Numbered from the stretch's first letter, positions 1 to 20,470 are shown. The stretch is DNA of 64,000 bases from an uncultured Bacteroidaceae bacterium (GCA_963777115.1 CAVZPP010000002.1:841741-905740); one strand, 5' to 3'. The notes: a model not told the origin generated them from the sequence alone. Translations and numbers: made by a program.

Positions 1-1
1 T

Positions 2-1261
2 CTCTGGAATTATTATTATTCTAACCTTTTATTGAATTGCCAGATTCTGGTAAAGTACACCGCTGATGATGAAGCATTGCTGAACAAACACCAGGTAGCC
101 AGGATATGGAAAGTGTACTCATTCCACAGGGTTACTGACCTCTGGGGAGATGTACCCTATTCGGATGCATGGAAGCTGCTTGATGATTATTCAAAGGAAA
201 GCATAACCCCGAAATACGATACCCAGGAGGATATCTATACTGATATGCTGGAAGAATTGAAAGACGCAGCTTCAAAAATTGATCCAACAGGGGAGTTTTA
301 TTCAAACGACATGATCTTTGACGGGAATATGGAACTGTGGATTAAGTTTGCAAACTCACTCAGACTCCGCCTTGCTGTTCGAAGTGGTAATCAACAGGTC
401 ATTAATGAAATTATTGCTGAGGACAATTTAATATCTGATTTGGATGAGGGAGCAGAGTTCACATACATCGAACCAAAAGAATGGTGGAGCCCGTATTATG
501 AGATGAATATCAGTTCCAGAAATCCGACGAATCCGGATCTGACCGGTACTGCAGTTTCCAAGGTTAGTGAATTGATGGCTGCCATACTTAATGCTACGGG
601 TGATCCTCGTTTTGAGATTTTTCTCCAGCCCATTGAAACAGATAATTTTTCCTATCGGGGAGTACCCAATCTGATGGATGCCAAAAAGAAAGAAAACCAG
701 GCTCTGGGCATGGGTGTAATGAGCACCTCCTATATTGGAAGATACTTCTCAGAAGATCCTACCTGGACAAAATTCCTTGTCAGCTATGCCGAAGTTTGTT
801 TCCTGAGATCAGAAGCAGCTTTCAGGGGATGGACCACAGAGGATGCCCAATACTGGTATGAAGAAGGGGTAGGGGCCGCTATGGAATTATACGAAATTCC
901 TGCAGATGATATATCCGCCTTTTTGTCCTCCGGGGGAGCCTGGACCAATTCCCTGGAGTTGATCATCACAGAAAAATGGATTGCCCTGTTCCTGGACGGC
1001 TGGGAAGCCTTCTCAGAATACAGGAGAACCGGGTATCCCCAGCTGATGAAATACGAAATGGTACTTGATGGAATTAAGATAAAAGAAATAGAGTTCGTAC
1101 CTGTTTCCAGGGACTATGTTCCTGGCAGGCTGCCTTATCCTTTGGATGAGAAGAGCCTGAATAAAGAGAATTATAATGAGGCTCTCAGCAGGATTGGAGG
1201 TACCGACGATTACTACCAGCAGGTCTGGTGGTCAAAGAAATTTGGAGATATTAATTATTAA
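2..1261 (+). CDS. SusD/RagB family outer-membrane nutrient-binding lipoprotein (5' end outside window)
   Basis: Motifs FHRVTDLWGDVPYS, PKYDTQEDIY, WIKFANSLRLRLA, IITEKWIALF and EYRRTGYP. The frame is open from base 2. Confidence 0.9.
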   Translation, partial: LWNYYYSNLLLNCQILVKYTADDEALLNKHQVARIWKVYSFHRVTDLWGDVPYSDAWKLLDDYSKESITPKYDTQEDIYTDMLEELKDAASKIDPTGEFYSNDMIFDGNMELWIKFANSLRLRLAVRSGNQQVINEIIAEDNLISDLDEGAEFTYIEPKEWWSPYYEMNISSRNPTNPDLTGTAVSKVSELMAAILNATGDPRFEIFLQPIETDNFSYRGVPNLMDAKKKENQALGMGVMSTSYIGRYFSEDPTWTKFLVSYAEVCFLRSEAAFRGWTTEDAQYWYEEGVGAAMELYEIPADDISAFLSSGGAWTNSLELIITEKWIALFLDGWEAFSEYRRTGYPQLMKYEMVLDGIKIKEIEFVPVSRDYVPGRLPYPLDEKSLNKENYNEALSRIGGTDDYYQQVWWSKKFGDINY

Positions 1262-1287
1262 AGATTCACTGTTCCGAACAAGCTGAC

Positions 1288-4200
1288 ATGAAATATATTA
1301 TCATAGCTGTAGTTGCTGTCTGTATTTTGTTTGTCCCGAAGGCAAAGGCTCAGACGGAATCCAAGCAGGAATTCCGTGCAACCTGGGTAGCCTCCGTTGC
1401 AAATATTGACTGGCCAAAGTATGAACACAGGGGAAAGTATGAAGATCAGAAAAATGACCTCATTCAGATGCTTAACGATTTCCAGGCATTGAATTTCAAT
1501 GCAATCTTATTGCAGGTGAGATCAGAATGCGATGCAATGTATAATTCTACCTATGAGCCATGGTCAAGATACCTCTCAGGGACCCAGGGAACAGATCCCG
1601 GATACGATCCACTTCAGTTTGCCATTGATGAAGCCCATAAAAGAGGAATTGAACTGCATGCCTGGATGAATCCTTACCGGATTAATGCATCGACCAGTGA
1701 TGGCTCCGGTTATTATCATACCGAGCATATCTATTTGGAGCATCCGGAATGGGCGATGGTATATCCTTCAAACAAGAAAATACTGAATCCCGGCCTGCCG
1801 GAAGTTATGTCCTATATCGGTTCAGTTGTGAGGGATCTCGTTGAGAACTATGAGGTTGACGGGGTGCACTTCGATGATTATTTTTATGGTTACGAAGGTA
1901 CCCTGGCATCCTATGACCAGGATGCTTATGATCTGTATGGAGGGGGCATGGCCAGGGATGACTGGAGAAGGGATAATGTAAACCGTATGATCGATACGGT
2001 CTATAAGGTGATACAGGAAACCGATCCGGATGTCAGGTTCGGGGTCAGTCCCTTTGGAATCTACAAAAACGGTGTGCCTCAGGGTATCGTTGGACTGGAC
2101 GCATACAGCGTGATCTATTGCGACCCACTGGCATGGCTGGAAGGTGGAGATGTAGACTATATTACTCCGCAGATGTACTGGCCAACAGGAGGGGGACAGG
2201 ATTTTGAGACACTGGCTCAATTCTGGTCTGACACCGTCTCACATTTCGGCAGGCATCTTTACGCTGGACAGGGGAGCTACCGGCTTTCGAGCAATCCCGA
2301 CCTTAAAGCAATGCAGGTGGATTCCGGACTTCATGAATCCAAGATGTATTTCGACCTGATGCCGGAGGATAACCTCTCTAATATGGAGCAAAGACTAAAG
2401 AGTACAAGTGATCCGGTGGCTCCGTGGACCCTGGGACAAATAGGACTACAGATAGATATTATCCGGTCACACCAGGATAAAGCAGGACTGGGTTCAGTGT
2501 TTTTCAGTGCAAAGGATTTCAGGCGTGTGAACGGATTGGCGGATTACCTGCAGCAGGAAAAATATACACATGTAAGCCTGGCTCCGGAAATGACCTGGAA
2601 ACCAGGTTCGGCGCCTGCTGCTCCCCAGAATATCACCACATTCGTAAACGGTGAGGATTATTACCTTACATGGGATGCCGGAGCTACAGGGACGGAAAGA
2701 TTTTATGTGTATTCCAGCAGTACAAGTATAGATCCCGTAAGCATTGTAAGTGATCCCGACAACCTCCAGGGAAGATCTTTCACAAATTCAATTCCTCTTG
2801 CAGGTTTAGTTATTCCGGAAGGAGCTTCGCTGGTTGTCACTGCCGTTTCACGTATCGGAAAAGAGAGTGATCCCAGCGCCCTGTATGAACTGGCTGAGGG
2901 AATACCCATGGTGGAGCTTGTCTCACCTGCAGATAGCGAGGTTCTTGGGACTGAGGATTTATTGAAATGGAGGTCCATGACACAGGACACATTATTCCAG
3001 CTGCAGGTTTCTGGCAACAGCAGCTTCAGCAATGTATTATACACCTCCGACTGGATCAGGGATTCTTCCTTCAGCATTTCGCCGCTTCAACTCGATGGTG
3101 AGACAGATTATTTCTGGAGGGCAAGAGCAAAGAGGGATGCAGGCGGACCCTATTCTGCTCCATGGAAGTTCCGTACGGGCTACCCGGCAGTACCCGAATT
3201 GACTGCACCTGAAAGCCTTCAACAACTGGTATCCACCCGCCCCAGGATTGAGTGGACCAGCAGTCCCTCTACCGACAGCATCAGGGTACTTATTTCTGAG
3301 AGCAGTTCATTTGATATTATTGCCGCAGATGATACTTTTGATGCAACAGCGGGAGAAGGGATTATTTCCGGAGAGCTGGGAAAAAATAAATGGTTCTATG
3401 CCAGGATCAAGGGAATTAATGAATATGGCAGTAGCGGGTATTCTGCGGATATTCCGTTTAAGACCACTAGCGGTGAAATTCCGGAAGTTAAACTGCTTGC
3501 CCCCGCTGACCAGTCCACCGTATCATCCTTTGACAGCCTGAGATGGGAAACAACGACAGGCTCGGGAAGCATCACATATTTAGTTGAGATTTCCCTCGAT
3601 GCAAACTTCAGCAGTGTTCTGTTTACAACAGGCTGGATACCATCACTTTATATCCTGGCTTCAGATCTGAACCTGGAAGGAAAGCGAAGTTATTACTGGC
3701 GGGTAAAGGCAAAAAGCGAATTCGGTGAAAGCGATTATACAGAGATTCGCAACTACACTGCGGGTTATCCGACAAGGCCATCAATTACCTCTCCCGGCTC
3801 CCTTTCAGAGAATAATGATGTTTATACGACTATTGGCTGGACAACAGATCCGGATGTAGACTCTGTCTATGTCGAGTTTGCCGAAGATGGTAAATTCACG
3901 ACTGTTAATAAATACGAAACCTTTGTCGCCACACCTGGAACGGGACAACTCAGCAGTCCCTTGCAAGGCCTCACCTGGTATTTTGCCAGAATTCAGGCCA
4001 TCAACGGATATGGAAGCAGCGTTTTCAGTGCAAGCAAATATTTCCGCACCGAAGAAGCCAGCCTCGTTGATAAACTCTCATCCTCCCATGCATTCGGGTT
4101 CGACATATTACCTAATGTCATAAGCGGGGAAAATGCCATTATCAGGTTGAAAATGCAGAGACCCTCGGCGATATCCATACAGGTGTACAATGCATTTGGA

Positions 4201-4356
4201 AGCGAAATTTTGATGGCTGAAAGGAAGCTGATGGCAGAGGAAGGTGTATCGGAGATAACACTGAATAGAGATGCACTTGGATTACCCGGTGTTTACCTGG
4301 TAAGGTTAACAGCAAATGGGAGCAGCATTGTTAAACGAATATTCCTGGTGGAGTAA
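1288..4356 (+). CDS. GHL10 (DUF187, YddW/DigH-like) glycosyl hydrolase with FN3-like repeats and a T9SS C-terminal sorting domain
   Basis: Signal peptide; EFRATWVASVANIDWP, LHAWMNPYR, DGVHFDDYFY, DYITPQMYW; repeated YxWRVxA beta-sandwich units; C-terminal PGVYLVRL..KRIFLV. Confidence 0.88.
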   Translation: MKYIIIAVVAVCILFVPKAKAQTESKQEFRATWVASVANIDWPKYEHRGKYEDQKNDLIQMLNDFQALNFNAILLQVRSECDAMYNSTYEPWSRYLSGTQGTDPGYDPLQFAIDEAHKRGIELHAWMNPYRINASTSDGSGYYHTEHIYLEHPEWAMVYPSNKKILNPGLPEVMSYIGSVVRDLVENYEVDGVHFDDYFYGYEGTLASYDQDAYDLYGGGMARDDWRRDNVNRMIDTVYKVIQETDPDVRFGVSPFGIYKNGVPQGIVGLDAYSVIYCDPLAWLEGGDVDYITPQMYWPTGGGQDFETLAQFWSDTVSHFGRHLYAGQGSYRLSSNPDLKAMQVDSGLHESKMYFDLMPEDNLSNMEQRLKSTSDPVAPWTLGQIGLQIDIIRSHQDKAGLGSVFFSAKDFRRVNGLADYLQQEKYTHVSLAPEMTWKPGSAPAAPQNITTFVNGEDYYLTWDAGATGTERFYVYSSSTSIDPVSIVSDPDNLQGRSFTNSIPLAGLVIPEGASLVVTAVSRIGKESDPSALYELAEGIPMVELVSPADSEVLGTEDLLKWRSMTQDTLFQLQVSGNSSFSNVLYTSDWIRDSSFSISPLQLDGETDYFWRARAKRDAGGPYSAPWKFRTGYPAVPELTAPESLQQLVSTRPRIEWTSSPSTDSIRVLISESSSFDIIAADDTFDATAGEGIISGELGKNKWFYARIKGINEYGSSGYSADIPFKTTSGEIPEVKLLAPADQSTVSSFDSLRWETTTGSGSITYLVEISLDANFSSVLFTTGWIPSLYILASDLNLEGKRSYYWRVKAKSEFGESDYTEIRNYTAGYPTRPSITSPGSLSENNDVYTTIGWTTDPDVDSVYVEFAEDGKFTTVNKYETFVATPGTGQLSSPLQGLTWYFARIQAINGYGSSVFSASKYFRTEEASLVDKLSSSHAFGFDILPNVISGENAIIRLKMQRPSAISIQVYNAFGSEILMAERKLMAEEGVSEITLNRDALGLPGVYLVRLTANGSSIVKRIFLVE

Positions 4357-4372
4357 TGAAAATATGTAATTA

Positions 4373-5218
4373 ATGATTGCAATAGCAGACAGCGGATCGA
4401 CAAGCACAGACTGGAGAATAATTGATGGCAGTGATACCATCAATATCAGGGGGAATGGGGTCAATCCGTATTTCATGACCAGCGAGCAAATTGTTGAGGA
4501 GTTAATATCCGGGGAGCTTAATGGTTATTTCAAGGATATTGAGAAAGTGTTTTTCTATGGAGCGGGACTGGCAAATGATCCTGTGAAAGAAATCATGCAA
4601 AGCGCCTTTGAGAAGGTATTTGTGAATGCAGTTTCATTAAGTTTTGAAGATGACCTGCTTGCTGCTTCAAGGGCGCTATTCAAAACAGGAGATGGCATTG
4701 CCTGCATTCTGGGAACAGGATCAAATTCATGCCTTTACAGGAATGGATTGATAGTAGACAGGATTCCTGCCCTGGGTTATATCCTGGGAGATGAGGGCAG
4801 TGGTGCCAGACTTGGGATAAATTTTATCAATGCCCTTCTGAAAAGGCAGCTCCCTGAAGAATTGAGCCGGAAGCTTATTGAAGATGAAGGATTATCAATG
4901 AACCAGGTACTGGAAAATGTATACAGGAAAAAGCTGCCTAATCGTTACCTGGCATCAATAACAAAAATTATACATGCAAATCTTGAATACGGAGAGGTGA
5001 AGAGAATTGTCCTGGATTCATTTGAGGATTTTTATTTAAAAAACATCTCAAGGTATGAAGGCCATGAAAACCTGGAAATCGGATTTGTTGGTTCTGTCTC
5101 CTGGCATTTCAGAAACCTGCTGGAAGAGGTATTACAGAAACATGGGCTCAGAGTGTCCCGGATCCTGCAGGCTCCAGTTGATGAACTGGTAAGTTTTCAT
5201 ACACAGGCAAAGAAATAA
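4373..5218 (+). CDS. BadF/BadG/BcrA/BcrD-family N-acetylhexosamine kinase (MurK-like MurNAc/GlcNAc kinase)
   Basis: IADSGSTSTDW, CILGTGSNS, GYILGDEGSG and FVGSV motifs; lies directly upstream of murQ. Confidence 0.82.
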   Translation: MIAIADSGSTSTDWRIIDGSDTINIRGNGVNPYFMTSEQIVEELISGELNGYFKDIEKVFFYGAGLANDPVKEIMQSAFEKVFVNAVSLSFEDDLLAASRALFKTGDGIACILGTGSNSCLYRNGLIVDRIPALGYILGDEGSGARLGINFINALLKRQLPEELSRKLIEDEGLSMNQVLENVYRKKLPNRYLASITKIIHANLEYGEVKRIVLDSFEDFYLKNISRYEGHENLEIGFVGSVSWHFRNLLEEVLQKHGLRVSRILQAPVDELVSFHTQAKK

Positions 5219-5231
5219 AATTAAAGAAACC

Positions 5232-6044
5232 ATGATAAACTATACGGAGTCCCCTTCATATTATGATGACCTTGAGAAGATGTCCGTTGGTGAATTGCTG
5301 GGGAACATCAACCATGAGGACAGCACGGTTCATATTGCAGTCAGTAAAATACTGCCACAGATTGAAAAGGTTGTATCGACGATTATCCCGAGAATTAAGA
5401 GGGGTGGCCGGCTTTTTTATGTCGGGGCAGGAACGAGCGGGAGGCTCGGTATACTTGATGCATCTGAGATACCTCCAACCTTCGGAGTGCCTTTTGATAT
5501 CGTTATTGGGATTATTGCCGGAGGGGACAGGGCAATAAGGAAGGCTGTTGAATCAGCAGAAGATGATGAAGCTGGTGCCTGGCGGGATCTTCAGAAATTT
5601 GAACCTCATGAAAGTGATTCTGTGGTCGGCATCGCCGCTTCCGGACGGACTCCCTATGTGATAGGTGCTGTAAAGGATGCCAGGAAAGCAGGCCTGTTCA
5701 CTTCCTGCATTACCTGTAATGAAAATACCAGGCTTGCTGCTGAAGTGGATGTGCCCCTGGAGGCTGTAGTGGGACCGGAATTTGTGACAGGGAGTACACG
5801 GATGAAGGCAGGCACTGCACAAAAACTGATCCTGAATATGATCACGACCTCGGTTATGATTAAGTTGGGAAAGGTGAAGGGCAACAAAATGATCGATATG
5901 CAGCTGACAAACCAGAAACTCGTTGACCGGGGTTCCAAAATGATCATGGATGAATTGAAGCTGAGCTATGCTGAGTCAAGGCGTCTTCTTCTTCTGTTCG
6001 GTTCAGTAAGGGATGTGCTGAACAATTATAAAAAAGACTTATAG
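5232..6044 (+). CDS. murQ: N-acetylmuramic acid 6-phosphate etherase
   Basis: GAGTSGRLGILDASEIPPTFG, GIAASGRTPYV and GPEFVTGSTRMKAGTAQKLILNM motifs. Confidence 0.96.
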   Translation: MINYTESPSYYDDLEKMSVGELLGNINHEDSTVHIAVSKILPQIEKVVSTIIPRIKRGGRLFYVGAGTSGRLGILDASEIPPTFGVPFDIVIGIIAGGDRAIRKAVESAEDDEAGAWRDLQKFEPHESDSVVGIAASGRTPYVIGAVKDARKAGLFTSCITCNENTRLAAEVDVPLEAVVGPEFVTGSTRMKAGTAQKLILNMITTSVMIKLGKVKGNKMIDMQLTNQKLVDRGSKMIMDELKLSYAESRRLLLLFGSVRDVLNNYKKDL

Positions 6045-6072
6045 TAAAAGAATCAACACTGTCCTTTCGGTT

Positions 6073-6795
6073 TTAGAACCGGTTCAGGTATTTAAGATAG
6101 ATTTCCCTGGTACGCTCAAGGTGTAAGCTCATTATCTCATAAGCCTCTTTCTCATTCTGTTCCCTGATAGATTTTAACACTTTGGTGTGGAACTCAACGG
6201 TATGAGGCTTTTCTCCATCAATATTGGCGTATATAAAATTCCTCATTCTCGGCAGCAGTGTATAGATGGGTTCCATGGTAATCTGCACAATAGGGTTTGA
6301 AGTGGCCTTCGTTATGATCAAATGGAATTTATTATCCAGGTCTGCTTCCTCCTGGGTATTGTCAGGGTCACATTTAATAAACTCATTAAGGTTGTTTTCC
6401 AGTTCATCCAGGTTTTCCTGGGTCCGGTTAACTGCAGCAAGCCTGGCAATTTCAGGTTCGAAAATCCGGCGAACCTCAATAATCTGATCGATAAGTTTAT
6501 TATCAAATTTCAGGTCGTAATAAAGGTTGAGGCTGTCAATAGCGTCCTCGATTTTAATCTCTGAGACGTAGATCCCGCTACCCTTCTGAATGAGGATCAG
6601 TCCCCTGGCACTTAAGCGCCTCAATGCTTCCCTCAGGGCTGTCCTGCTGACACCGAAAGATTTGCACATCTCATGCTCTGATGGAAGCTTGGTACCTATA
6701 GTCAGCTTCTTTTCACGGATGGCAGCTTCAATGGTCCTCTCAATCTTCTGGCTGAGTGTCTGTTTGTTTCCAATATCCTGAAAGATATTTTCCAT
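6073..6795 (-). CDS. FadR/GntR family transcriptional regulator (FCD domain)
   Basis: GntR wHTH (LPSEHEMCKSFGVSRTALREAL) followed by an FCD domain (DNKFHLII..N, H..V). Confidence 0.92.
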   Translation of the reverse strand: MENIFQDIGNKQTLSQKIERTIEAAIREKKLTIGTKLPSEHEMCKSFGVSRTALREALRRLSARGLILIQKGSGIYVSEIKIEDAIDSLNLYYDLKFDNKLIDQIIEVRRIFEPEIARLAAVNRTQENLDELENNLNEFIKCDPDNTQEEADLDNKFHLIITKATSNPIVQITMEPIYTLLPRMRNFIYANIDGEKPHTVEFHTKVLKSIREQNEKEAYEIMSLHLERTREIYLKYLNRF

Positions 6796-6866
6796 TTTAT
6801 TCTTAATTAGTATGTTTCAGATCTATTTTTTCCAATGCAGCAACATACTCTCATTTTATGAAGCTG

Positions 6867-6874
6867 CAAAGGTA
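6867..6874 (-). promoter_or_regulatory. Bacteroidota sigma-A -7 element (TACCTTTG) upstream of the FadR regulator
   Basis: Exact TAnnTTTG match about 70 bp upstream of the start codon. Confidence 0.5.
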
Positions 6875-6879
6875 AATTT

Positions 6880-9738: not shown

Positions 9739-9743
9739 ATGAT
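9721..9743. promoter_or_regulatory. Inverted repeat ATCATAT-ttgtatgac-ATATGAT, candidate FadR-family operator
   Basis: Perfect 7-bp arms around a TTGTATGAC core, just upstream of the probable dehydrogenase start at 9708. Confidence 0.35.
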
Positions 9744-10017
9744 CACATAAAGATATAGAATTATTATTTATCTGGAACGATAATTTTTCAATCCTTGTAT
9801 ATTACCCATAAAATAATAGTGAAAATACTAAGGACCAAGCATAACAGCTAAAAAATATGTTGTTCCGGATAAGGGAAATCAAGAGGTGAAATAGCTGGTT
9901 TACCAGGTGGATGGATAAATCTTTTTTATTATTTGGGCCCAATATGTAACATGTATTACAAATTTTCATTATTTTTGATAATTCCTTATTTCCAGGTACC
10001 AAATTACCTAATTGACG

Positions 10018-11448
10018 ATGGCAAAAATCAATTGTTTCCTTGATAACTCTGAAGGATCCGAAAACCTCGTAAAGCACTTAAAAAAGCATGATCTAATTGA
10101 TGAAGTGTATCTGCTGGGCAAGGAAGGTGACCCCATTGAGTCCGGAATATTTCATACCGATACAATCCGGAAGATTGCGGACTTGTCCCTTGCAGAATAT
10201 ACACTTATTGTGGCAGAGGATTGTCATATTGATTTCGGTGAGTTTGCACTCGAGCGTTTTATTTCAGCAGCTGAAGCAACCGGAGCTGGCATGTTGTATT
10301 CAGATTATTTCCGGGTTTCGGCAGAAAAGCAGGTACCCCATCCGGTTATTGATTACCAGTCAGGAAGCCTGAGGGATGATTTTAATTTCGGACCGGTCCT
10401 CTTCTACAGGTCAGAGGCTCTGAGGAGGGCAGTTTCAGGTATTAAGGATTCGTTTGAATATGCCGGATTATTTCAACTTCGCCTGAAGACAAGCCAGGAA
10501 TTTGATATTGTGAGAATTCCCGAGTTTCTGTATTCAAGAATTGATATTGATTCAGCCGGAAAAAGGTCTGGATTTGATTACGTGGATCCTAAGAACAGGA
10601 ATGTTCAACTGGAGATGGAAAAGGCGGTAACAATTCATCTGAAGGAGACGGGTGCTTACCTGGGAGGCAATTACAGGGAAATTGACTTTGAAAGCGAAAA
10701 CTTTGAAACAGAGGCATCCGTGATTATTCCGGTTTTGAACAGGGAAAAGACGATTGCAGATGCGATCGAGTCGGTGATGATACAGAAGACAGGGTTTCCC
10801 TATAACCTGATTATAGTTAATAACCATTCCAAAGATACTACAGGCGAGATTATTGAATCATATGCTGAGAAGTACGACAACCTGGTCCATATTATTCCGG
10901 AAAGAAAAGACCTTGGAATAGGGGGTTGCTGGAACCTGGCTGCTCATGACAAACGATGCGGCCGATTTGCGGTCCAGTTGGACAGTGATGATCTTTATAA
11001 GGATCATACAACCCTCCAGCAGATCATTGATACCTTTTACAGGGAAAAATGCGCCATGGTAATTGGTAGCTACCAGCTCACAAATTTTGATCTGGAGGAA
11101 ATCCCGCCGGGAATAATCGACCACAGGGAATGGACCCCTGAGAATGGAAGAAATAATGCATTGAGGATCAATGGACTGGGAGCGCCCAGGGCTATATATA
11201 CCAAAATTCTCCGGGAAATAAAGATCCCAAATGTCAGCTACGGTGAGGATTATGGCCTTGGACTGGCCATCAGCAGAAATTACAGGATTGGCAGGATTTA
11301 TACTCCTGTTTATTTATGCCGGCGCTGGGAGGATAATACCGATGCCTTACTCAGCACGGAAGCAAGCAATAAGCATAATTATTATAAGGACCGCTTGCGC
11401 ACATTTGAATTTATGGCAAGGATCAAGCAGAACCAGGAAACAAGGTAG
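10018..11448 (+). CDS. Glycosyltransferase family 2 protein (two GT-A-like halves)
   Basis: C-terminal half has [16 protein letters not shown] and SYGEDY; N-terminal half is a degenerate GT-A (LYSDY, RDDFNFG). Confidence 0.88.
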
Positions 11449-11464
11449 AGCCTTTGTATACTAC

Positions 11465-12409
11465 ATGAATTATCAGGCACTGGCAAAAATACTATTCAGG
11501 GATCAGTTGGAAAGCTGGGAATTATTGAGAAATAATTTAGAGGGACTGGAGCATGCGAGGATCAGGAAATTCAGTTTTGATGGTTATTCCATTAATATTC
11601 AGTTTAATCCGAAACGGATAATCTCGTCTGCAGCCAGGGTTGACAGTGAATCCATCAATCAGCGAAAATGCTTTTTATGTTCTGCTAACCGTCCCCGGGA
11701 ACAGGAGAGCGTAATATTTGACAATGATTACGAGATACTATGTAATCCATACCCGATTTTCAAGCGGCATTATACCCTGGCCAAACTAGATCATGTTCCC
11801 CAGTTGATAGAGAACAGCTTTTCAACCATGCTTGATTTGAGCAAAGCTCTGCCAGACCTGGTGGTATTCTATAACGGTCCGAAATGCGGCGCATCAGCTC
11901 CGGATCATTTGCATTTCCAGGCCGGAAACCTGGGGTTCCTTCCGATTGAACAGGAATATGAAGGACTTAAGATGCAGTACGGAAAGACCCTCATGGAGAA
12001 TCATGGATTGTCCCTCACCTCTGTGAATGACGGACTAAGACGCTTTTTTATGATTGAATCGGCGGAGAGGGAAGGGATTAATGAGCTTTTTGATATTATT
12101 TACAGGCAGGTATCAAAGGGAAATCAGGAAGAAGAACCCATGATGAATATCCTGTCCTGGTACGATGGACAATGGCGGGTAATGATATTTCTGCGCCAAA
12201 ATCACAGGCCGAGGCAATTCTTCGCAGAGGGAGAGAACAACATACTAATCAGTCCGGCTGGAGTCGATTACGGAGGTACCATGATCATGCCCATGGAAAA
12301 GGATTTTAATAAGATTACCCTGGAGGATATCAATGATATATTCCAGCAGGTTTCATATCCGCCAATGAAATTCAGGGAGTTGGAAGATTATTTTAGTTCT
12401 CAGAGATAA
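11465..12409 (+). CDS. DUF4922 protein, HIT superfamily (GDP-hexose phosphorylase/GalT-like HxHxQ)
   Basis: QFNPKRIISS, CFLC, LCNPYPI, FYNGPKCGASAPDHLHFQAG. ATG at 11465 is preferred over the longer track ORF, which overlaps GT2. Confidence 0.85.
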   Translation: MNYQALAKILFRDQLESWELLRNNLEGLEHARIRKFSFDGYSINIQFNPKRIISSAARVDSESINQRKCFLCSANRPREQESVIFDNDYEILCNPYPIFKRHYTLAKLDHVPQLIENSFSTMLDLSKALPDLVVFYNGPKCGASAPDHLHFQAGNLGFLPIEQEYEGLKMQYGKTLMENHGLSLTSVNDGLRRFFMIESAEREGINELFDIIYRQVSKGNQEEEPMMNILSWYDGQWRVMIFLRQNHRPRQFFAEGENNILISPAGVDYGGTMIMPMEKDFNKITLEDINDIFQQVSYPPMKFRELEDYFSSQR

Positions 12410-12421
12410 TTATTGATTATT

Positions 12422-13321
12422 ATGATAAGGACATACCAGGATGAAGATTTTAAGCCTGTTCTTGACTTAATGGAAAGGAACTCAGAGTTTGACACTTTCA
12501 GCGAATCCCTTCTGAAGGAGAAGCTTTATGATGATCCCTACTGGAACCCTGAGTCCACACTGCTTGCCCTGGAAGATGATAGCATCTGTGGTTTCATGCA
12601 GGGAGTATCCCGTGAAATTGAAGGAATAAGGTACGGGTATATTAAATTGATGGCAGTGGAGGATAATCAACGCAGAAAGGGTGTGGCGACCCGCCTGTAT
12701 ACTGAATTGGAGAGGATATTCATAGAGGCACATGTTACCAATATAAGGATCTATGACGTACCTCTTAATTATTTCATGCCCGGAATTGATCCCCGCTATA
12801 CTCCGGCAGTTTGTTTTGCCCAAAAGATGGGGTTTCAACACAATGGAGAGGCATGCAATATGATCGTTGACCTGGAAAGTTCTGATTGGGATGCCAGTGA
12901 GGATATTGAAAACCTTAAGAGTGAAAACATTGAGATTGCCAGGGCAAAATCCTCGGATAAGGACGAATTACTTCAGTTTATTGCTAAAGAATGGATTCTG
13001 TGGACAAATGAGCTGAATATGGCGATGCGATCAGATCCACCCGCTCTGTATATTGCCAGGCAGGCAGGAATTATCATGGCTTTCTCTGCCTACGACGGAA
13101 ATAATATCGGGACCGGCTGGTTTGGTCCCATGGGAACAGATACTTCCCTTCGCGGCAAGGGTGTCGGAAGTATACTGCTGAAGCTCTGCCTGGCAGACAT
13201 AAAGGCACAGGGACAGAAAAAATCGATCATTCCATGGGTGGCCCCGGTGGGTTTTTATTCCCATTATGCGAATGCAAAAATCGACAGGGTGTTCTGGAGA
13301 TTTGAAAAGATTATAGGATAA
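12422..13321 (+). CDS. Tandem GNAT N-acetyltransferase
   Basis: Two acetyl-CoA motifs (V...QRRKGVA and GT...RGKGVG); YFMPGID and FGPMG motifs. Confidence 0.85.
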   Translation: MIRTYQDEDFKPVLDLMERNSEFDTFSESLLKEKLYDDPYWNPESTLLALEDDSICGFMQGVSREIEGIRYGYIKLMAVEDNQRRKGVATRLYTELERIFIEAHVTNIRIYDVPLNYFMPGIDPRYTPAVCFAQKMGFQHNGEACNMIVDLESSDWDASEDIENLKSENIEIARAKSSDKDELLQFIAKEWILWTNELNMAMRSDPPALYIARQAGIIMAFSAYDGNNIGTGWFGPMGTDTSLRGKGVGSILLKLCLADIKAQGQKKSIIPWVAPVGFYSHYANAKIDRVFWRFEKIIG

Positions 13322-13323
13322 GA

Positions 13324-14676
13324 ATGAATATGATAAAAACCCCATACATAAATGTTGGAATAATTCGACAGGCAGTGATTAAATTTCGGTTCTCAGGAAA
13401 ATTCTACCTGTCCGGTACTTCAGAAAACTACTATGATGCCTGTGAAGCATCCATTGAGAAAGGAAAAATAAGGATTGACACGGGCGGGATCCATAAGTTA
13501 CACGGGGAAAAAGCCACCTTCATTCCCTGTAATTTATTTGCCGATCTTTTTGAGTTAACCGATGTGCTTATCGGAATTGATTTCCACTGGGAACAGAAGG
13601 AGAATCAGAAATTCCAGGGTGCCTTAAAACTTCTGGCCATGGGAGATGAGATACAGGTTGTTAACGTCCTTCCCGTAGAAAACTATATCAACAGTGTTAT
13701 ATCATCCGAGATGAGTGCAGACAGTTCACTGAACCTGCTGAAGGCACATGCTGTAATATCAAGGAGCTGGGCCCTGAAACAGATAAATACAAAATACATG
13801 GAGGCGGATGATGAAACACGGACAGCCGGTGAAGAAAAATCCGAATCAGAATTTATTCAATGGTATGACCATAAGGATCACAAGCATTTTGATGTCTGTG
13901 CGGACGATCATTGCCAGCGTTACCAGGGTCTTGCGAGGGCACAGAATTCCAACGTGATCCGGGCAGTAAAAGAGACATACGGGCAGGTATTGACTTATGA
14001 GAATGAAATATGTGATGCCCGCTATTCCAAATCCTGCGGTGGTGTTTCCGAAACATTTGAGAATTGCTGGGACCCCGTTCCCCATCCCTATCTGAAAAAA
14101 GTGATTGACCGGCCCGCAGAGGAAAAAGGAGAAGTTCATGATCTTCGCCTGGAAAACAATGCCAGATCTTTTATTGAGGCGAGTCCGGTAGCATTTTGCA
14201 ATACAAGTGACAGATCACTGATTAACCAGGTATTAAATGACTATGACCGCTTAACAGAAGATTTCTTCCGTTGGGAAATTACCTATACCCAGGATGAGAT
14301 ATCAGCAATAATTCTTGAAAAATCAGGAATGGATTTTGGGAAAATCATAGATCTTGTCCCTGTTGAAAGAGGAGAATCAGGCAGATTAGTAAGGCTTCAT
14401 ATTGAAGGTACCAAAAGAGGTCTGACCATTGGAAAAGAACTTACCATCAGAAAGTGGCTCAGCAGGACACATCTTTACAGTTCCGCAATAATCATAGAAA
14501 AGCTTGAAGGGGAGAATGATTTGCCCATTGGTTTCCGTATCCGGGGAGCAGGATGGGGTCATGGTGTGGGATTGTGCCAGATCGGTGCAGCAGTGATGGG
14601 AGAGAAGGGCTATACAGCTGAGGAGATACTTAACCATTATTACCCGGGCGCAAACATTGAAAAAATTTACACCTAA
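13324..14676 (+). CDS. SpoIID/LytB domain lytic transglycosylase-like protein
   Basis: VNVLPVENYINSVISSEM, LKAHAVISRS, DVCADDHCQRYQG, GWGHGVGLCQIGA and ILNHYYPG motifs. Confidence 0.92.
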   Translation: MNMIKTPYINVGIIRQAVIKFRFSGKFYLSGTSENYYDACEASIEKGKIRIDTGGIHKLHGEKATFIPCNLFADLFELTDVLIGIDFHWEQKENQKFQGALKLLAMGDEIQVVNVLPVENYINSVISSEMSADSSLNLLKAHAVISRSWALKQINTKYMEADDETRTAGEEKSESEFIQWYDHKDHKHFDVCADDHCQRYQGLARAQNSNVIRAVKETYGQVLTYENEICDARYSKSCGGVSETFENCWDPVPHPYLKKVIDRPAEEKGEVHDLRLENNARSFIEASPVAFCNTSDRSLINQVLNDYDRLTEDFFRWEITYTQDEISAIILEKSGMDFGKIIDLVPVERGESGRLVRLHIEGTKRGLTIGKELTIRKWLSRTHLYSSAIIIEKLEGENDLPIGFRIRGAGWGHGVGLCQIGAAVMGEKGYTAEEILNHYYPGANIEKIYT

Positions 14677-14688
14677 AATTCAGCAGGC

Positions 14689-16554
14689 ATGCAGGAAACA
14701 AAACAATCCGAGAAAATAAGTCCCTGGGCCTGGGTACCAAGCCTGTATTTTGCCGAGGGTATACCCTATGTACTGGTTATGACCCTTTCTGTGATTTTTT
14801 ACAAAAGAATGGGGATATCAAATAGTGATATCGCGCTGTATACCAGCTGGTTGTATCTGCCATGGGTGATCAAGCCCCTCTGGAGTCCCCTTGTGGATAT
14901 GCTCAGGACCAAGCGTTTCTGGATTGTGATCATGCAATTGTTTGTGGGAGTTGGACTCGCGGGTGTGGCCTTCACCATACCTGTGGAAAGATTCTTTCAG
15001 TTTACCCTGGCATTTTTCTGGTTACTGGCTTTTAGTTCTGCTACGCATGATATTGCAGCAGACGGATTTTATATGCTGGGTCTCTCAAAGCATGACCAGG
15101 CCTTCTTCGTCGGAATCCGCAGTACATTTTACAGGCTTGCCATGCTAACAGGGCAGGGCCTTTTAGTCATACTTGCAGGGTTCCTTGAAGCCAGAACAGG
15201 ATTACCCCCGGTTGAGGTATCTGTTACAACTTCAGTAGATTACACAGAGGAGATGCTGGAATTTAATCCTTCGGATATCAGGATTAAGGAGGATTCCTCA
15301 TCTGTCTATTTTATAACTGATAATGATCTGGAAATTTCCCTGCATGCATTGATCGGATCAGATGCGGATGCGATTCTTAATGAAATTGATAACTGGAACA
15401 TAAGTAATGGTTTCTACTCCGGGAATGAGGAAGAAACCTATGATAAAGAAACTGCCGGTTGGTGGAAGAATCATATTTCCTTTCCCCTGGAGTCTCTTCT
15501 CAGAAAAACTTTCGATGCGGGGAAAGAGACCCCGGATATGGAAACTGCAGGCAACATAGGATACACCTGGTTTTATCTGAGCAGAAAGCCCGAAAACAAT
15601 GATAAAGTTGTAATGAATTTCAGCTATGAAAAAGGGGATAAAAGTATTGGACTTGTCAGGGATTACAGGTTCGAGTTCAGCTCTGAAAACTGGAATGTGC
15701 CTGCCATTGCTGCATTTCAGCTGGATCCCAAACTAAGTAAATCTGCTGTGGCTGACTTCAAAGGTCTTTCAGGGAATATCAGGTTTGCCTGGACCATTGT
15801 ATTTGCCGCAATTGCAGTATTGTTCCTCTTATTCTTCATTTATCACCGCATCATTCTTCCCAGACCTGAAGAAGACCGTCCTGGCAAGAGTGAAGGTAAA
15901 GGATTCCTGAGGGAATTTTTACAGGTATTTGCCCTGTTTTTCAAAAAGAAGGATATCTGGGTGATCCTGCTTTTCCTCCTGGTGTACCGGCTCGGAGAAT
16001 CCCAGCTGGTAAAAATGGCTTCTCCTTTCCTGCTGGATCCACGGGAGATGAATGGACTGGGATTAACCACCGGTGACCTGGGACTGATCTATGGTACAAT
16101 AGGAATTTTGTTCCTGTCCCTCGGTGGTATCATCGGGGGTATCGCAGCATCCAGGAAAGGACTTAAATACTGGCTCTGGTGGATGGTTGCAGCCATTAAC
16201 CTGCCCAACCTGGTCTATGTATTTTTATCCTATACAATGCCCTCAGCCTTATGGGTAGTTGGTGCCAGCGTGGCCGTAGAACAATTCGGTTATGGTTTTG
16301 GATTTACAGCCTATATGCTTTACATGATATATGTATCAGAAGGAAAACACAAGACGGCTCATTTTGCCATAACAACGGGATTTATGGCCCTGGGCATGAT
16401 GATTCCCGGGATGATCAGCGGATGGCTGCAGGAAATTATCGGGTACGAAAATTTCTTTATCTGGGTCATGATATGTACTATACCAAGCTTTATCATGGTA
16501 TCGGTAGTTAAAATTGATCCTGCCTTCGGTAAACGACAGAAAACAAACAAATAA
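14689..16554 (+). CDS. AmpG-family muropeptide MFS permease with a large soluble insertion
   Basis: SLYFAEGIPY, LPWVIKPLWSP and SATHDIAADG; about 190 hydrophilic residues inserted mid-protein. Confidence 0.85.
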   Translation: MQETKQSEKISPWAWVPSLYFAEGIPYVLVMTLSVIFYKRMGISNSDIALYTSWLYLPWVIKPLWSPLVDMLRTKRFWIVIMQLFVGVGLAGVAFTIPVERFFQFTLAFFWLLAFSSATHDIAADGFYMLGLSKHDQAFFVGIRSTFYRLAMLTGQGLLVILAGFLEARTGLPPVEVSVTTSVDYTEEMLEFNPSDIRIKEDSSSVYFITDNDLEISLHALIGSDADAILNEIDNWNISNGFYSGNEEETYDKETAGWWKNHISFPLESLLRKTFDAGKETPDMETAGNIGYTWFYLSRKPENNDKVVMNFSYEKGDKSIGLVRDYRFEFSSENWNVPAIAAFQLDPKLSKSAVADFKGLSGNIRFAWTIVFAAIAVLFLLFFIYHRIILPRPEEDRPGKSEGKGFLREFLQVFALFFKKKDIWVILLFLLVYRLGESQLVKMASPFLLDPREMNGLGLTTGDLGLIYGTIGILFLSLGGIIGGIAASRKGLKYWLWWMVAAINLPNLVYVFLSYTMPSALWVVGASVAVEQFGYGFGFTAYMLYMIYVSEGKHKTAHFAITTGFMALGMMIPGMISGWLQEIIGYENFFIWVMICTIPSFIMVSVVKIDPAFGKRQKTNK

Positions 16555-16565
16555 AACCTATATAA

Positions 16566-18887
16566 ATGAATACCAATTCCATCATTGAAAGAAAGTTCAT
16601 CGAATTTTCCGGACTGGAGCCGGCAAAAGCGAACATACCATTTATTGTGGTGGATAACTTCCCCAGGCTGGGACTCATGACTGCCTTAAGGTTCCTGGAG
16701 TGGGTAAATGAGAATCCTGATGGAGTAATCAGCCTTCCCACAGGGAAAACACCGGAGTATTTTATAATGTGGACCAAATATCTGCTGGAGAACTGGGATA
16801 GTAAGAAAGGAATGGACATAAGGGCAAAGTATGGACTGGACAATACTCCAAAGCCGCTGCTCTCCAACCTGCAGTTTGTACAGATAGATGAGTTTTATCC
16901 AATCAGTTCTGAGCAGCATAATAGTTTCTACAATTATGTCAACAAATATTACCTCAAGGATTTTGGACTGGATCCAAAGAAGGCATTACTGATAAACTCG
17001 GATACCATAGCCTTATTTGACGGGAAACATTTTAAAGAGGTATTTCCCGATTATCATGTAGACCTTACCCTGAGATACAGGGAACCCTCCTCCTCCTTTG
17101 AGAGGCAGCAGCAACTTTCCATTTTTACCATTGATGACTGGTGTTCAAATTATGAATCCCAGGTCCGTGACAAGGGAGGAATAGGTTTCTTCCTGGGTGG
17201 TATCGGACCGGACGGACATATTGCTTTTAATACCCGAGGTTCTGATCACCAGTCCACCACCCGCCTTACCTCAACAAATTTTGAGACTCAGGCAGTTGCA
17301 GCAGGAGATCTTGGAGGAATTGAGGTATCACGGAACAGGCTGGTAATTACCATTGGACTAAAAACCATAACCTATAATCCTGATGTGACTGCATTGATCT
17401 TTGCAGCCGGGGAAGCAAAAGCTCCAATGGTAAAGGATGCACTGGAACAAAAACCTTCTAATTTATATCCTGCAACGGTTCTGGCCGGAAAAGAAAATGC
17501 CAGGTTCTACCTGACATCTGGGGCGGCGACTATGCTTGAAAGTTCGCTTGATGCCTACTTTAAAAATGGTGAATGGACCCAGACAAAGACGGACCGGGCT
17601 GTCATTGAGCTTTGCAGAAGGCTTGGAAAATATGCCCATCATCTCACCCTGGATGACCTTAAGGACGATAAACATTGTAAAATGATACCCGGGATCAGTG
17701 AAAATACGGTTAGCACCGCCATTGAGTCTATTCAGGCAAAGATAGAAAGGGGAATGAAACTCGAAAAGGATCAGGTATTCTATCATACAGGACCACACCA
17801 TGATGATATTATGCTGGCCATCCTGCCTCATATCCACCGGTCCATTGAGGATGAATCCAACCGAAATTATTTTTCAGTCCTCACCTCTGGATTCACTGCA
17901 GTAACAAACCAGTTTTTGATTGAGGCCATGAAGGATACTAAAAAGTTCCTGGACCAGGGATTGATACAGATGACCGAGTACGCTGATTTTTTTGAGTCAG
18001 GTTTTAAGCATAAGCGTGACAAGGATGTTTACCATTACCTTATCAAGGTAGCCTCAGGAGAAGCCTATGAATTGCGCAGGGGACTGGCGCACAGGATAGT
18101 CAGGGCGATTGTGGAAACTTTTAAGGTGCGTTCTTCAGAGGAACTCTGGGATCAGATTAATGAGATACTCCATATTCTGAGGAAGAGTTATGACGGAGAA
18201 AAGAATCCCTCAAAAATTCAGAAACTGAAAGGCATGATCAGGGAATTTGAAGAGGAACTGGTATGGGCCTATCTGGGAGTAGATATTAAAGATATACACC
18301 ACCTTCGCCTGGGATTCTACACGGGTGATATTTTTACAGAACAACCTCAGCAAACTCGTGATGTGGAACCGGTGCTTAAGGAACTGCGCAATATTAAGCC
18401 CAGTGTAATCAGCCTTGCATTTGACCCGGAAGGGAGCGGACCCGATACGCATTATAAGGTATTACAGGTCATAGCTGATGCAATAAGGTCATGGAAAAAA
18501 GAGGAAGACCTTTCTAAACTGAGGATATGGGGATACAGAAATGTATGGTACCGGTTTCATCCGGCGGAAGCTAATGTTATCGTTCCGGTCTCCCTGAATG
18601 ATATGGGAGTAATGGAGAAAACATTCGAAAACAGTTACCTCAGCCAGGTGGATGCTTCCTTTCCCAGCTATCAGCATGATGGCAAATTCAGTGAACTTTC
18701 ACAAAAAATCTGGGTTTCCCAATTAAAAATTCTTCAGTTATTGCTTGGAAAAAAGTATTTTTACCAAAATGTAAGTCCAAGGCTAAGGTCCACTCATGGA
18801 TTATTATTTTTCCGGGAGATGAATGTGGATGAATTCCTGCAACAGGCCCGGGAGTTAGAGAAGTCGATGGAAGGCATATTGGATTAG
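16566..18887 (+). CDS. nagB: Glucosamine-6-phosphate deaminase fused to a PIG-L/LmbE-like deacetylase domain
   Basis: SLPTGKTP, QIDEFYP and GGIGPDGHIAFN (NagB); GPHHDDIML and DPEGSGPDTHYKV (PIG-L-like). Confidence 0.85.
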   Translation: MNTNSIIERKFIEFSGLEPAKANIPFIVVDNFPRLGLMTALRFLEWVNENPDGVISLPTGKTPEYFIMWTKYLLENWDSKKGMDIRAKYGLDNTPKPLLSNLQFVQIDEFYPISSEQHNSFYNYVNKYYLKDFGLDPKKALLINSDTIALFDGKHFKEVFPDYHVDLTLRYREPSSSFERQQQLSIFTIDDWCSNYESQVRDKGGIGFFLGGIGPDGHIAFNTRGSDHQSTTRLTSTNFETQAVAAGDLGGIEVSRNRLVITIGLKTITYNPDVTALIFAAGEAKAPMVKDALEQKPSNLYPATVLAGKENARFYLTSGAATMLESSLDAYFKNGEWTQTKTDRAVIELCRRLGKYAHHLTLDDLKDDKHCKMIPGISENTVSTAIESIQAKIERGMKLEKDQVFYHTGPHHDDIMLAILPHIHRSIEDESNRNYFSVLTSGFTAVTNQFLIEAMKDTKKFLDQGLIQMTEYADFFESGFKHKRDKDVYHYLIKVASGEAYELRRGLAHRIVRAIVETFKVRSSEELWDQINEILHILRKSYDGEKNPSKIQKLKGMIREFEEELVWAYLGVDIKDIHHLRLGFYTGDIFTEQPQQTRDVEPVLKELRNIKPSVISLAFDPEGSGPDTHYKVLQVIADAIRSWKKEEDLSKLRIWGYRNVWYRFHPAEANVIVPVSLNDMGVMEKTFENSYLSQVDASFPSYQHDGKFSELSQKIWVSQLKILQLLLGKKYFYQNVSPRLRSTHGLLFFREMNVDEFLQQARELEKSMEGILD

Positions 18888-20380: not shown

Positions 20381-20470
20381 ATAAGGAGGAAGTATAATTT
20401 CCTGATGATAAATTAAAAAGAAGGATCACCCTTTCGGGGGAAGAATGGTCCATCCGGTAAATGGTGTAGA

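Follow-up and report, generated by a model that had tools for sequence, protein, structure and literature searches.

The first 18.9 kb (positions 1 to 18,887) of the 64,000-nucleotide stretch analyzed here, the window (G000:C2:841741-905740 of genome G000, an uncultured Bacteroidaceae bacterium; GCA_963777115.1 CAVZPP010000002.1:841741-905740), make up the right two-thirds of an island of 33 kb (G000:C2:827363-860627) that extends from a short GHL10 gene to a NagB/LmbE fusion gene. We propose, with good though not full confidence, that this island is a polysaccharide utilization locus (PUL) for the peptidoglycan of other bacteria, a substrate that we infer from the genes it carries. Few pools of bacterial necromass are larger than peptidoglycan, fragments of which act as immune signals. 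An earlier note, made from the window alone, had already read its left part as such a locus for exogenous cell walls. In our hands, that reading gained from a susC and an amidase gene found farther left, from the conservation of the module to which they belong, and from a Cwp19-like GHL10 domain, while it lost ground on the roles given to SpoIID, NagB, and D-lactate and on the separability of its gene blocks.

Open reading frames (ORFs) of the window were listed and scanned with Pfam and NCBIfam profiles, and a further 40 kb to its left was also annotated; signal peptides were assessed by eye and with a hydropathy scan rather than with a trained predictor. All twelve genes of the earlier note were recovered at their positions by ORFs, Pfam, and NCBIfam (Table 1).

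The outer-membrane module and its recurrence

To the left of the window, where the earlier note had advised looking for susC and an amidase gene, both are present. A secreted 274-amino-acid (aa) protein (hyp274), an Amidase_3 protein, SusC, and SusD follow one another in the same direction, with gaps of 2 bp (hyp274-amidase), 6 bp (amidase-SusC), and 16 bp (SusC-SusD). The full SusD gene (G000:C2:841463-843001, 512 aa) starts 278 bp upstream of the window, and its product has a lipoprotein signal with the lipobox LLSAC at residues 15-19. Of the marks of a PUL, the locus thus has an adjacent SusC/SusD pair and glycan-degrading enzymes alongside, GHL10 lying 26 bp after SusD; the gaps across SusD, GHL10, the kinase, and MurQ are 26, 16, and 13 bp. 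Because the intergenic gaps are small, hyp274-amidase-SusC-SusD-GHL10-kinase-MurQ is most likely, as judged from the sequence, a single transcription unit, and the hairpin upstream of it (L002:13103-13137) is likely a terminator parting the two T9SS genes on its left from this unit.

Export by type IX secretion (T9SS) was read from its C-terminal sorting domain (TIGR04183, cut-off 23). The amidase scores 17.4, under this cut-off, yet alignment with its neighbors' T9SS tails extends over the final 80 residues, and it probably carries such a tail. The long GHL10 protein comprises a signal peptide, the GHL10 TIM barrel (residues 28-335), ~600 aa without assigned domains, and a T9SS tail. The closest solved structure to its GHL10 domain is Cwp19 (5oq2, E 7e-81). 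When the proposed active-site residues of Cwp19 are placed on it by motif context, the motifs FDDYFY (Asp195/196, Tyr197), NPYR (Arg132), HAW (Trp127), and QVR (Gln77) are kept, and so are GVSP (Ser250), PQxYWP (Gln295, Tyr297), and GQG (Gly328). Cwp19 of C. difficile is described, in the accessible part of its paper, as an assayed lytic transglycosylase that releases 1,6-anhydromuropeptides and reducing-end products from peptidoglycan (PMC6016235), and DigH/YddW of E. coli, again from the accessible text, degrades peptide-free peptidoglycan glycans (PMC12288456). The long GHL10 protein shares its catalytic domain with these two enzymes, both of which act on the glycan backbone of peptidoglycan. 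Cwp19 is anchored to its own cell wall by CWB2 repeats, whereas the long GHL10 protein here is predicted to leave its producer's own wall behind by export through T9SS and has ~600 extra residues; DigH resides in the periplasm as a divisome lipoprotein.

The same arrangement was found in other genomes and contigs. When 301 of the order's genomes were searched with SusD, one orthologue emerged (G079, 61% identity), with all other matches at 42% or less, and the 9.6-kb contig of G079 reads hyp274-amidase-SusC-SusD-long GHL10. A metagenome scan with two SusD sequences added five contigs (L096 to L100) at 61-65% identity. Altogether, the hyp274-amidase-SusC-SusD-long GHL10 module occurs on six other contigs at 50-65% identity, the SusD orthologues being 61-66% identical. 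The long GHL10 gene lies immediately 3' of SusD on all six, the amidase immediately 5' of SusC on each of the three contigs extending so far, and the kinase immediately 3' of GHL10 on two of the five extending so far. L096 and L099 begin the series with the gene for the 1368-aa T9SS protein, followed by hyp274-amidase-SusC-SusD-GHL10; L097, with the same scores as L099, may represent the same population. L098 reads SusC-SusD-GHL10-kinase-MurQ, its MurQ being 79% identical to that of G000, and L100 reads SusD-GHL10-kinase up to the contig end. On L099 and L097, GHL10 is followed by an NTP-transferase with MurU as its best NCBIfam match (127.8 bits, cut-off 250). Since the arrangement recurs in other genomes and contigs, the clustering of these genes exceeds chance. 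In a protein collection, 51 SusD clusters were found at at least 52% identity, all from uncultured Bacteroidota and, where the source is named, from Bacteroidales, Marinilabiliales, or Salinivirgaceae.

Twelve other SusCD pairs (29-42% SusD identity) gave no amidase, GHL10, kinase, or MurQ match in the surrounding stretches examined and were taken as other PULs; one of them (G198) has a distant NagB/LmbE-like match 4 kb off. A search for the long GHL10 in the species genomes returned solely the short type (36-43% identity), with no peptidoglycan-related neighbors among the queries.

Two predicted enzymes of MurNAc (N-acetylmuramic acid) catabolism close the unit. The kinase matches Tannerella forsythia structures (MurK, 179 bits; its paralogue K1058, 195 bits) and has P-A-L where MurK forms its lactyl pocket with S133-P134-L135, that is, small residues and no Glu or His, a pattern that is by itself insufficient for specificity. 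MurQ, a single-copy gene in this genome, passes the equivalog cut-off (TIGR00274, 304.5 versus 302; PRK05441, 360.7 versus 168).

The island and its inner block

Wherever a congener has aprA and nhaA on a single contig (8 of 8), the two lie 3.2-3.7 kb apart, versus 34.4 kb in G000, which makes the whole 33 kb one presence/absence unit. Both blocks of the locus, from the SusCD module to MurQ and from GT2 to NagB/LmbE, have arrived, or been kept, together in G000. The long GHL10, DUF4922, and MurQ were not found in 14 same-genus genomes (72-98% completeness), and the flanks are colinear in the three congeners inspected closely; the nhaA and PAPS-reductase-family genes on the right are kept in congeners at 72-86% identity, and aprA, on the left, is found in 14 of 14 congeners at 85-91% identity, forming with the HdrA/Qmo-like and FlpD genes a conserved backbone. 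In the two congeners whose gap was annotated (G014, L109:5094-7410; G008, L110:4330-6741), the very site of the island is occupied by an APH/RapZ_C kinase, in which an APH-family kinase is fused to a RapZ C-terminal domain, and by an NTP-transferase. On L109 their best NCBIfam matches are AmgK, with 62 bits (cut-off 550), and MurU, with 104 bits (cut-off 250), pointing to another MurNAc-salvage-like pair in the same slot. On another contig (C3:622249-624377), G000 itself carries a kinase/NTP-transferase pair that has diverged (49% and 39% identity). There is no tRNA gene at the island borders, the only one seen lying ~21 kb to the left, and no composition shift within the window part of the island.

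Beyond MurQ, a GntR/FCD regulator gene stands downstream of a dehydrogenase gene on the same strand. The best NCBIfam matches of the regulator (NanR, LldR, GlcC, and PdhR) are all below cut-off. The dehydrogenase had been called a D-lactate dehydrogenase: an FAD/4Fe-4S gene is indeed present, but it reaches no curated model at cut-off, its best partial matches being YdiJ (223.6 bits, cut-off 1350) and GlcD (192.2, cut-off 567.9), with 18.7 bits against the Dld model NF008387 (cut-off 391). Its architecture presumably resembles that of Shewanella Dld-II. D-lactate is proposed as its substrate solely from its position beside murQ, and neither of the two relatives open to assessment has a dehydrogenase gene next to murQ.

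The second block, GT2-DUF4922-GNAT-SpoIID-AmpG-NagB/LmbE, has gaps of 16, 3, 2, 12, and 11 bp, in agreement with the 2-16 bp first described. The 230 N-terminal residues of GT2 have no domain assignment, and neither signal peptide nor membrane helix was seen by hydropathy. In the DUF4922 protein, which at 314 aa is as long as its relatives, the motifs CFLC and HxHxQ are invariant across 35 homologues, and its AlphaFold2 (AF2) model (pLDDT 88) is closest to Apa2 Ap4A phosphorylase (TM 0.62), ADP-glucose phosphorylase, and GalT, at 9-18% identity to solved structures. In the accessible text of the papers concerned, the same Pfam domain occurs in the GDP-D-glucose phosphorylase GDPGP1 and in the GDP-L-galactose phosphorylase VTC2/GGP (PMC7041677, PMC11047344). 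Because of these motifs, the modeled fold, and the domain shared with GDP-hexose phosphorylases, the most likely activity of DUF4922 is nucleotidyl transfer, with a sugar-1-phosphate on one side and phosphate or another acceptor on the other. The HxHxQ motif and the fold are common to GDPGP1, VTC2/GGP, and yeast Apa2; unlike these, the protein here is the neighbor of a SpoIID-like protein and is fused to one in a relative. This fusion, in G030 (L041:7888-10266, G030:C28), is a 793-aa ORF with DUF4922, including CFLC, as its N-terminal half and a SpoIID-like C-terminal half. Open frames of 710-830 aa are also seen at the DUF4922 matches in G154, G276, G114, G274, G160, and G279.

The SpoIID-like protein had been credited with cutting denuded glycan strands, a role outside the cytoplasm that we do not retain: hydropathy detected no hydrophobic segment across its 450 aa, nor in three free-standing relatives. 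Being without a signal and fused to DUF4922 in G030, it would be a cytoplasmic protein rather than a sacculus enzyme. We take the Glu of its VISSEM motif to occupy the position of the catalytic Glu of SpoIID.

For AmpG, the call of a muropeptide permease holds insofar as an AmpG-like major facilitator superfamily (MFS) protein is present, but it scores 174.4 bits against a family cut-off of 350 and carries a hydrophilic insert of ~190 aa (window 15200-15750, residues ~170-355) between its two six-helix halves, which abut in the G030 homologue, where the insert is missing. The functional call is made by analogy, from synteny with the T. forsythia type of operon. Likewise, the product called NagB does have a NagB fold, but it has no default Pfam match, scores 81.3 against TIGR00502 (cut-off 236.9), and is fused to an LmbE fold. 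Its AF2 model, built with 33 homologues (pLDDT 90.5), shows a NagB fold at residues 1-330 (TMt 0.80-0.88 over ~300 columns to NagB structures) and an LmbE/PIG-L-type fold at ~400-773, matching LnmX and diacetylchitobiose deacetylase structures, with QIDEF, GIGPDGHIAFN, and HTGPHHDD as conserved motifs. The residue after AFN, which we take to correspond to the catalytic Glu148 of E. coli NagB, is not conserved in the fusion. Since the predicted folds are those of NagB and of LmbE deacetylases, the fusion could perform both steps from GlcNAc-6-P (N-acetylglucosamine-6-phosphate) to fructose-6-P.

Another NagB/LmbE fusion, of 774 aa and with 64% identity to that of the window (L048:13971-16295 on the minus strand = G000:C2:815711-818035), lies ~9 kb left of the island, adjoining a GFO/IDH/MocA oxidoreductase gene and a creatininase-family gene. 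The canonical nagB (G000:C2:1305052-1305772), beside a nagA-like gene, consists of two adjoining frames of 149 and 129 aa; it may be frameshifted or misassembled and, if the break is real, the NagB/LmbE fusions may be the sole intact deaminases.

Relatives keep much of this block together. DUF4922 is present in 6 of 40 relatives, with AmpG alongside in five and GT2 beside it in four. The series GT2-DUF4922-SpoIID-AmpG is found in G031, G016, and G030, DUF4922-SpoIID-AmpG in G038, and GT2-DUF4922-GNAT-AmpG in G032, the only one of the six with GNAT within the block. A short GHL10 gene adjoins the block in G031 and G016, MurK-MurQ lies 3 kb from it in G031, and a kinase gene adjoins it in G032.

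In the promoter regions, including that between the two divergent units (9739-10017), no convincing shared operator palindrome was seen. A sigma-70 promoter and terminator scan, which has no Bacteroidota promoter model, gave 19 terminators versus 18.6 expected, a result equal to chance.

Around the island, the dissimilatory-type adenosine 5'-phosphosulfate reductase cluster formed by aprA and its neighbors is unexpected in a Bacteroidota genome. Farther left, L048 carries a protein of 1375 aa (L048:21-4148), in which CBM_4_9 and PcRGLX-like (rhamnogalacturonan-lyase-like) domains occur, and a short T9SS-tailed GH16 fragment (L048:7569-8207), both probably parts of another glycan system.

Table 1. 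Genes and signals of the island and its flanks, from left to right (plain numbers are window positions)
Feature	Position	Strand	Evidence
aprA, probable aprB, HdrA/QmoA-like flavoproteins, FlpD/4Fe-4S	L002:1167-5586 = G000:C2:822907-827326; L048:18092-19822	-	aprA: TIGR02061 893 bits, cut-off 642
Short GHL10, signal peptide, 503 aa	leftmost island gene	-	
477-aa T9SS protein	between short GHL10 and 1368-aa protein		TIGR04183 43.4 bits
1368-aa T9SS protein, five AIR9-type Ig domains and part of DUF5018	before hairpin		TIGR04183 43.0 bits
Perfect 15-bp inverted repeat, 5-nt loop, then TTTTT	L002:13103-13137		10 bp 3' of 1368-aa T9SS gene
hyp274, secreted 274-aa protein	directly before amidase		TolB/PD40-like family lead (Atlas)
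Amidase_3 protein, 782 aa, two Big_5 domains, signal peptide	before SusC		PF01520 71.4 bits
SusC	before SusD		TIGR04056 640.5 bits (cut-off 368.25); signature TIGR04057
SusD-like lipoprotein, 3' 419 codons	1-1261 (ORF 2-1261)	+	PF12771 238.2 bits
GHL10 glycan-cleaving enzyme, predicted secreted, 1022 aa	1288-4356	+	PF02638 231.8 bits; TIGR04183 28.4
MurK-type sugar kinase (BadF/ASKHA), 281 aa	4373-5218	+	MurK/K1058 structure matches
MurQ, MurNAc-6-phosphate etherase, 270 aa	5232-6044	+	TIGR00274 304.5 bits, cut-off 302
GntR/FCD regulator, 240 aa	6073-6795	-	PF00392, PF07729
FAD-linked 2-hydroxyacid dehydrogenase with 4Fe-4S and CCG, 952 aa	6880-9738	-	PF01565, PF02913, PF13183, PF02754
Divergent intergenic region, 279 bp, between dehydrogenase-GntR unit and GT2...NagB/LmbE unit	9739-10017	.	
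GT2 glycosyltransferase, 476 aa, ATG 10018	10018-11448	+	PF00535 75.7 bits, residues 234-369
DUF4922, GalT-branch HIT protein, 314 aa, ATG 11465	11465-12409	+	PF16269 210.6 bits
Two-domain GNAT acetyltransferase, 302 aa	12413-13321	+	PF00583 55.9 bits, two stretches
SpoIID/LytB-like protein, no signal peptide, 450 aa	13324-14676	+	TIGR02669 173.9 bits, cut-off 83.3
AmpG-like MFS permease, 621 aa	14689-16554	+	TIGR00901 174.4 bits (cut-off 350), two stretches
NagB-fold and LmbE/PIG-L-type deacetylase-fold fusion, 773 aa	16566-18887	+	PRK02122 200.1 bits, cut-off 384
nhaA and PAPS-reductase-family gene, right flank of the locus, which ends at 18887	19043-21178		nhaA: PF06965 472 bits

Proposed route and competing explanations

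We propose a model in which the depolymerization of foreign walls would begin outside the cell, the T9SS-exported amidase stripping stem peptides and the T9SS-exported long GHL10 enzyme cutting glycan strands, while the two further T9SS proteins, with their Ig-like domains, may retain the substrate. Glycan fragments would then cross the outer membrane by way of SusD and SusC. In the periplasm, the short GHL10 protein, which has a signal peptide, and a NamZ encoded elsewhere could trim the fragments, and the AmpG-like permease, by analogy with its T. forsythia homologue, would import the disaccharides. In the cytoplasm, following the known chemistry of their families, the MurK-type kinase would yield MurNAc-6-P and MurQ would convert it to GlcNAc-6-P and D-lactate; the NagB/LmbE fusion may deacetylate and deaminate the former to fructose-6-P, and the FAD/FeS dehydrogenase, under the GntR/FCD regulator, may oxidize the latter. 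DUF4922 stands constantly beside GT2 and is fused to the SpoIID-like protein in one relative, which indicates joint action: GT2, DUF4922, GNAT, and the SpoIID-like protein would form a cytoplasmic set that probably acts on AmpG-imported material, via a nucleotide-sugar or sugar-1-phosphate intermediate.

A more specific scheme for this set is tentative and rather doubtful: SpoIID-like protein, DUF4922, and GT2 could convert GlcNAc-MurNAc and GlcNAc-anhMurNAc to sugar-1-phosphates or nucleotide sugars without ATP, with GNAT re-acetylating glucosamine-containing fragments. As a speculation, the glycosyltransferase might run in reverse with a nucleoside diphosphate (NDP) that the phosphorylase regenerates; an equally speculative alternative is that the 1,6-anhydro ring is opened onto phosphate. 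If true, either scheme would bypass NagZ, AnmK, and AmgK/MurU.

The genome also encodes, elsewhere, MurA, AnmK, NamZ (on another contig), and a NagA-like protein (220.6 bits, cut-off 225.65). The system would therefore be catabolic or supplementary rather than the lifeline of an auxotroph.

Several observations weigh against a PUL for foreign peptidoglycan. SusD (at least 60% identity) is found in 2 of the 301 order genomes, versus 68 of 301 for DUF4922, which occurs once per genome in these and is found in Bacteroides thetaiotaomicron too. Downstream of GHL10, L096 carries unrelated genes, and with L097/L099 two to three of the five contigs leave the locus at this point. None of the relatives' stretches examined has NagB/LmbE, GntR, or the dehydrogenase beside the inner block. 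No LysM, SPOR, SH3b, or PG_binding domain was found by Pfam in any of the secreted proteins. No regulator of the PUL type (hybrid two-component, SusR-like, or extracytoplasmic function [ECF] sigma/anti-sigma) was found when G000:C2:801741-862900 was scanned with Pfam and NCBIfam for ORFs from 100-120 aa upward, where GntR/FCD is the sole regulator seen, and SusC is without an STN domain. GHL10 is a broad family whose substrates may differ between members, according to the accessible part of the Cwp19 structure paper. Finally, three proteins, the AmpG-like one, the NagB-like one, and the dehydrogenase, stay under the curated cut-offs of the families that give them their names.

The first of these points bear on whether the locus is one system at all. 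Two independent systems might stand side by side, a SusCD/GHL10/amidase PUL and an operon for the recycling of the own wall (GT2 to AmpG, with MurK and MurQ), sharing neither regulation nor flux. The modules are found apart in relatives, as the DUF4922 and SusD counts show, genes from outside the locus follow GHL10 on L096 and L097/L099, and here the divergent dehydrogenase-GntR pair sits between the blocks. We nevertheless find this unlikely. The kinase gene lies 16 bp after GHL10 here and directly behind it on L098, where MurQ comes next, and on L100, so that the PUL unit itself includes cytoplasmic MurNAc catabolism. Both SusD-carrying genomes among the 301 also have DUF4922, and the 33 kb is present or absent as a single piece in the comparison with 8 congeners. 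Moreover, seven SusD and seven DUF4922 orthologues come from sources with longest contigs identical in length (43,360; 50,423; 53,329; 30,854; 263,116; 39,126; and 74,534 bp), and the cluster look-up gave an eighth pair (76,037 bp); these seven or eight matching sizes suggest that the two blocks share contigs in other genomes too. The linkage supposed in the earlier note is thus qualified: the blocks are separable in relatives, but the outer-membrane module runs into the kinase gene on L100 and into kinase-MurQ on L098.

The outer-membrane module could also target another glycan, such as an exopolysaccharide of acetylated amino sugars or a polymer of the capsular or teichoic type, with the amidase, MurK, and MurQ clearing contaminating wall fragments. 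The accessible text of the Cwp19 structure paper gives PgaB, which processes poly-N-acetylglucosamine (PNAG), as the closest fold and expects substrates to vary across GHL10, and the lack of Pfam-detectable peptidoglycan-binding domains in the secreted proteins fits this possibility as well. Against it, Amidase_3 (PF01520) is by family specific for the MurNAc-L-Ala bond, and its gene directly precedes SusC on 3 of 3 contigs; a MurK-type kinase, MurQ, or MurU-like gene follows GHL10 on 4 of 5 contigs (L097/L099 possibly being one population); and the two assayed GHL10 members, as reported in the accessible texts, both act on peptidoglycan. Another glycan as the main target therefore appears very unlikely. 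That the secreted amidase and GHL10 enzyme are chiefly weapons lysing neighbors, with debris uptake secondary, would agree with their T9SS export signals (for the amidase, a tail read by alignment) and with the lysis of cells by Cwp19-type enzymes, as the accessible literature has it, but is hardly tenable given that both enzymes lie within a SusCD transport unit leading into catabolic genes, a nutrient-system layout, and that the profile scans left of the window showed neither an immunity gene nor a toxin-type delivery domain; it differs from a PUL for foreign peptidoglycan in emphasis rather than in mechanism.

Relation to known systems and meaning

Two things are already known, the PUL paradigm and the pathway by which salvage proceeds from AmpG inwards. 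In T. forsythia, the accessible text of three papers (PMC5388701, PMC7670621, bioRxiv 2021.12.02.470905) describes the operon Tanf_08345-08385 ('xanthan lyase'-gtf-gtf-lytB-ampG-namZ1-murT-murK-murQ) as a single transcript under GppX and reports the function of its two 'gtf' genes as unknown. AmpG imports GlcNAc-MurNAc and GlcNAc-anhMurNAc and is required for growth on peptidoglycan, according to the parts available of the first two (PMC5388701, PMC7670621). Peptidoglycan uptake is invoked, but no outer-membrane importer is given a name in the accessible text, which refers to the amidase as 'so far unidentified'. Comparison with the published gene order shows the same succession here of a glycosyltransferase, a second 'gtf' (DUF4922), a LytB/SpoIID-like protein, and AmpG, with a MurK-type kinase and MurQ within the locus. 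By contrast, the locus here has no MurT and no 'xanthan lyase', NamZ is encoded on another contig, a NagB/LmbE fusion follows AmpG, and MurK-MurQ are part of the SusCD unit; MurA and AnmK are present, hence by this criterion the organism is not a MurNAc auxotroph. We considered the genes for FAD proteins left of the short GHL10 gene as a counterpart of the Tanf_08345 'xanthan lyase', but these are aprA and the HdrA/Qmo-like backbone.

With Sus-paradigm PULs the island shares a unit, read in one direction, that joins SusC/SusD to an enzyme cleaving glycans at the surface or after secretion and to catabolic genes downstream. It differs in its proposed substrate, peptidoglycan, in depolymerases that are predicted T9SS cargo instead of lipoproteins, in having an amidase in the unit, and in that no hybrid two-component or ECF regulator was found nearby. 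The idea has a precedent in a 27-kb PUL of the Urechidicola symbiont of Idas mussels (PMC10199937), for which the accessible text lists two susCD pairs, murQ, nagB, ampG, an AmpD-type amidase, dacA, GH3, GH18, GH171, and 'GH10', and which its authors describe as mostly murein genes, noting it in passing without a synteny survey or assay. That PUL, which we compared by description, belongs to another Bacteroidota class and has enzymes of its own (AmpD-type amidase, NamZ, DD-carboxypeptidase, and L-Ala-D/L-Glu epimerase). In its accessible part, a 2026 review mentions TonB-receptor/SusD arrays for MurNAc foraging as speculation only. In our literature search, no SusCD system for peptidoglycan came up that had been assayed or named, although a description elsewhere is possible.

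The known salvage of peptidoglycan in Bacteroidota begins at the inner membrane, and our study supplies candidates for the missing importer and amidase. These form a conserved set, with a T9SS amidase, a T9SS GHL10 enzyme, and one SusC/SusD pair, and the system moves as an island. Moreover, the function of the T. forsythia 'gtf' genes is narrowed, one of them most likely being a HIT enzyme of the NDP-sugar phosphorylase type, which can occur in fusion with a cytoplasmic SpoIID-like domain. If the proposed reading is true, the island would be the first described SusCD system for peptidoglycan.

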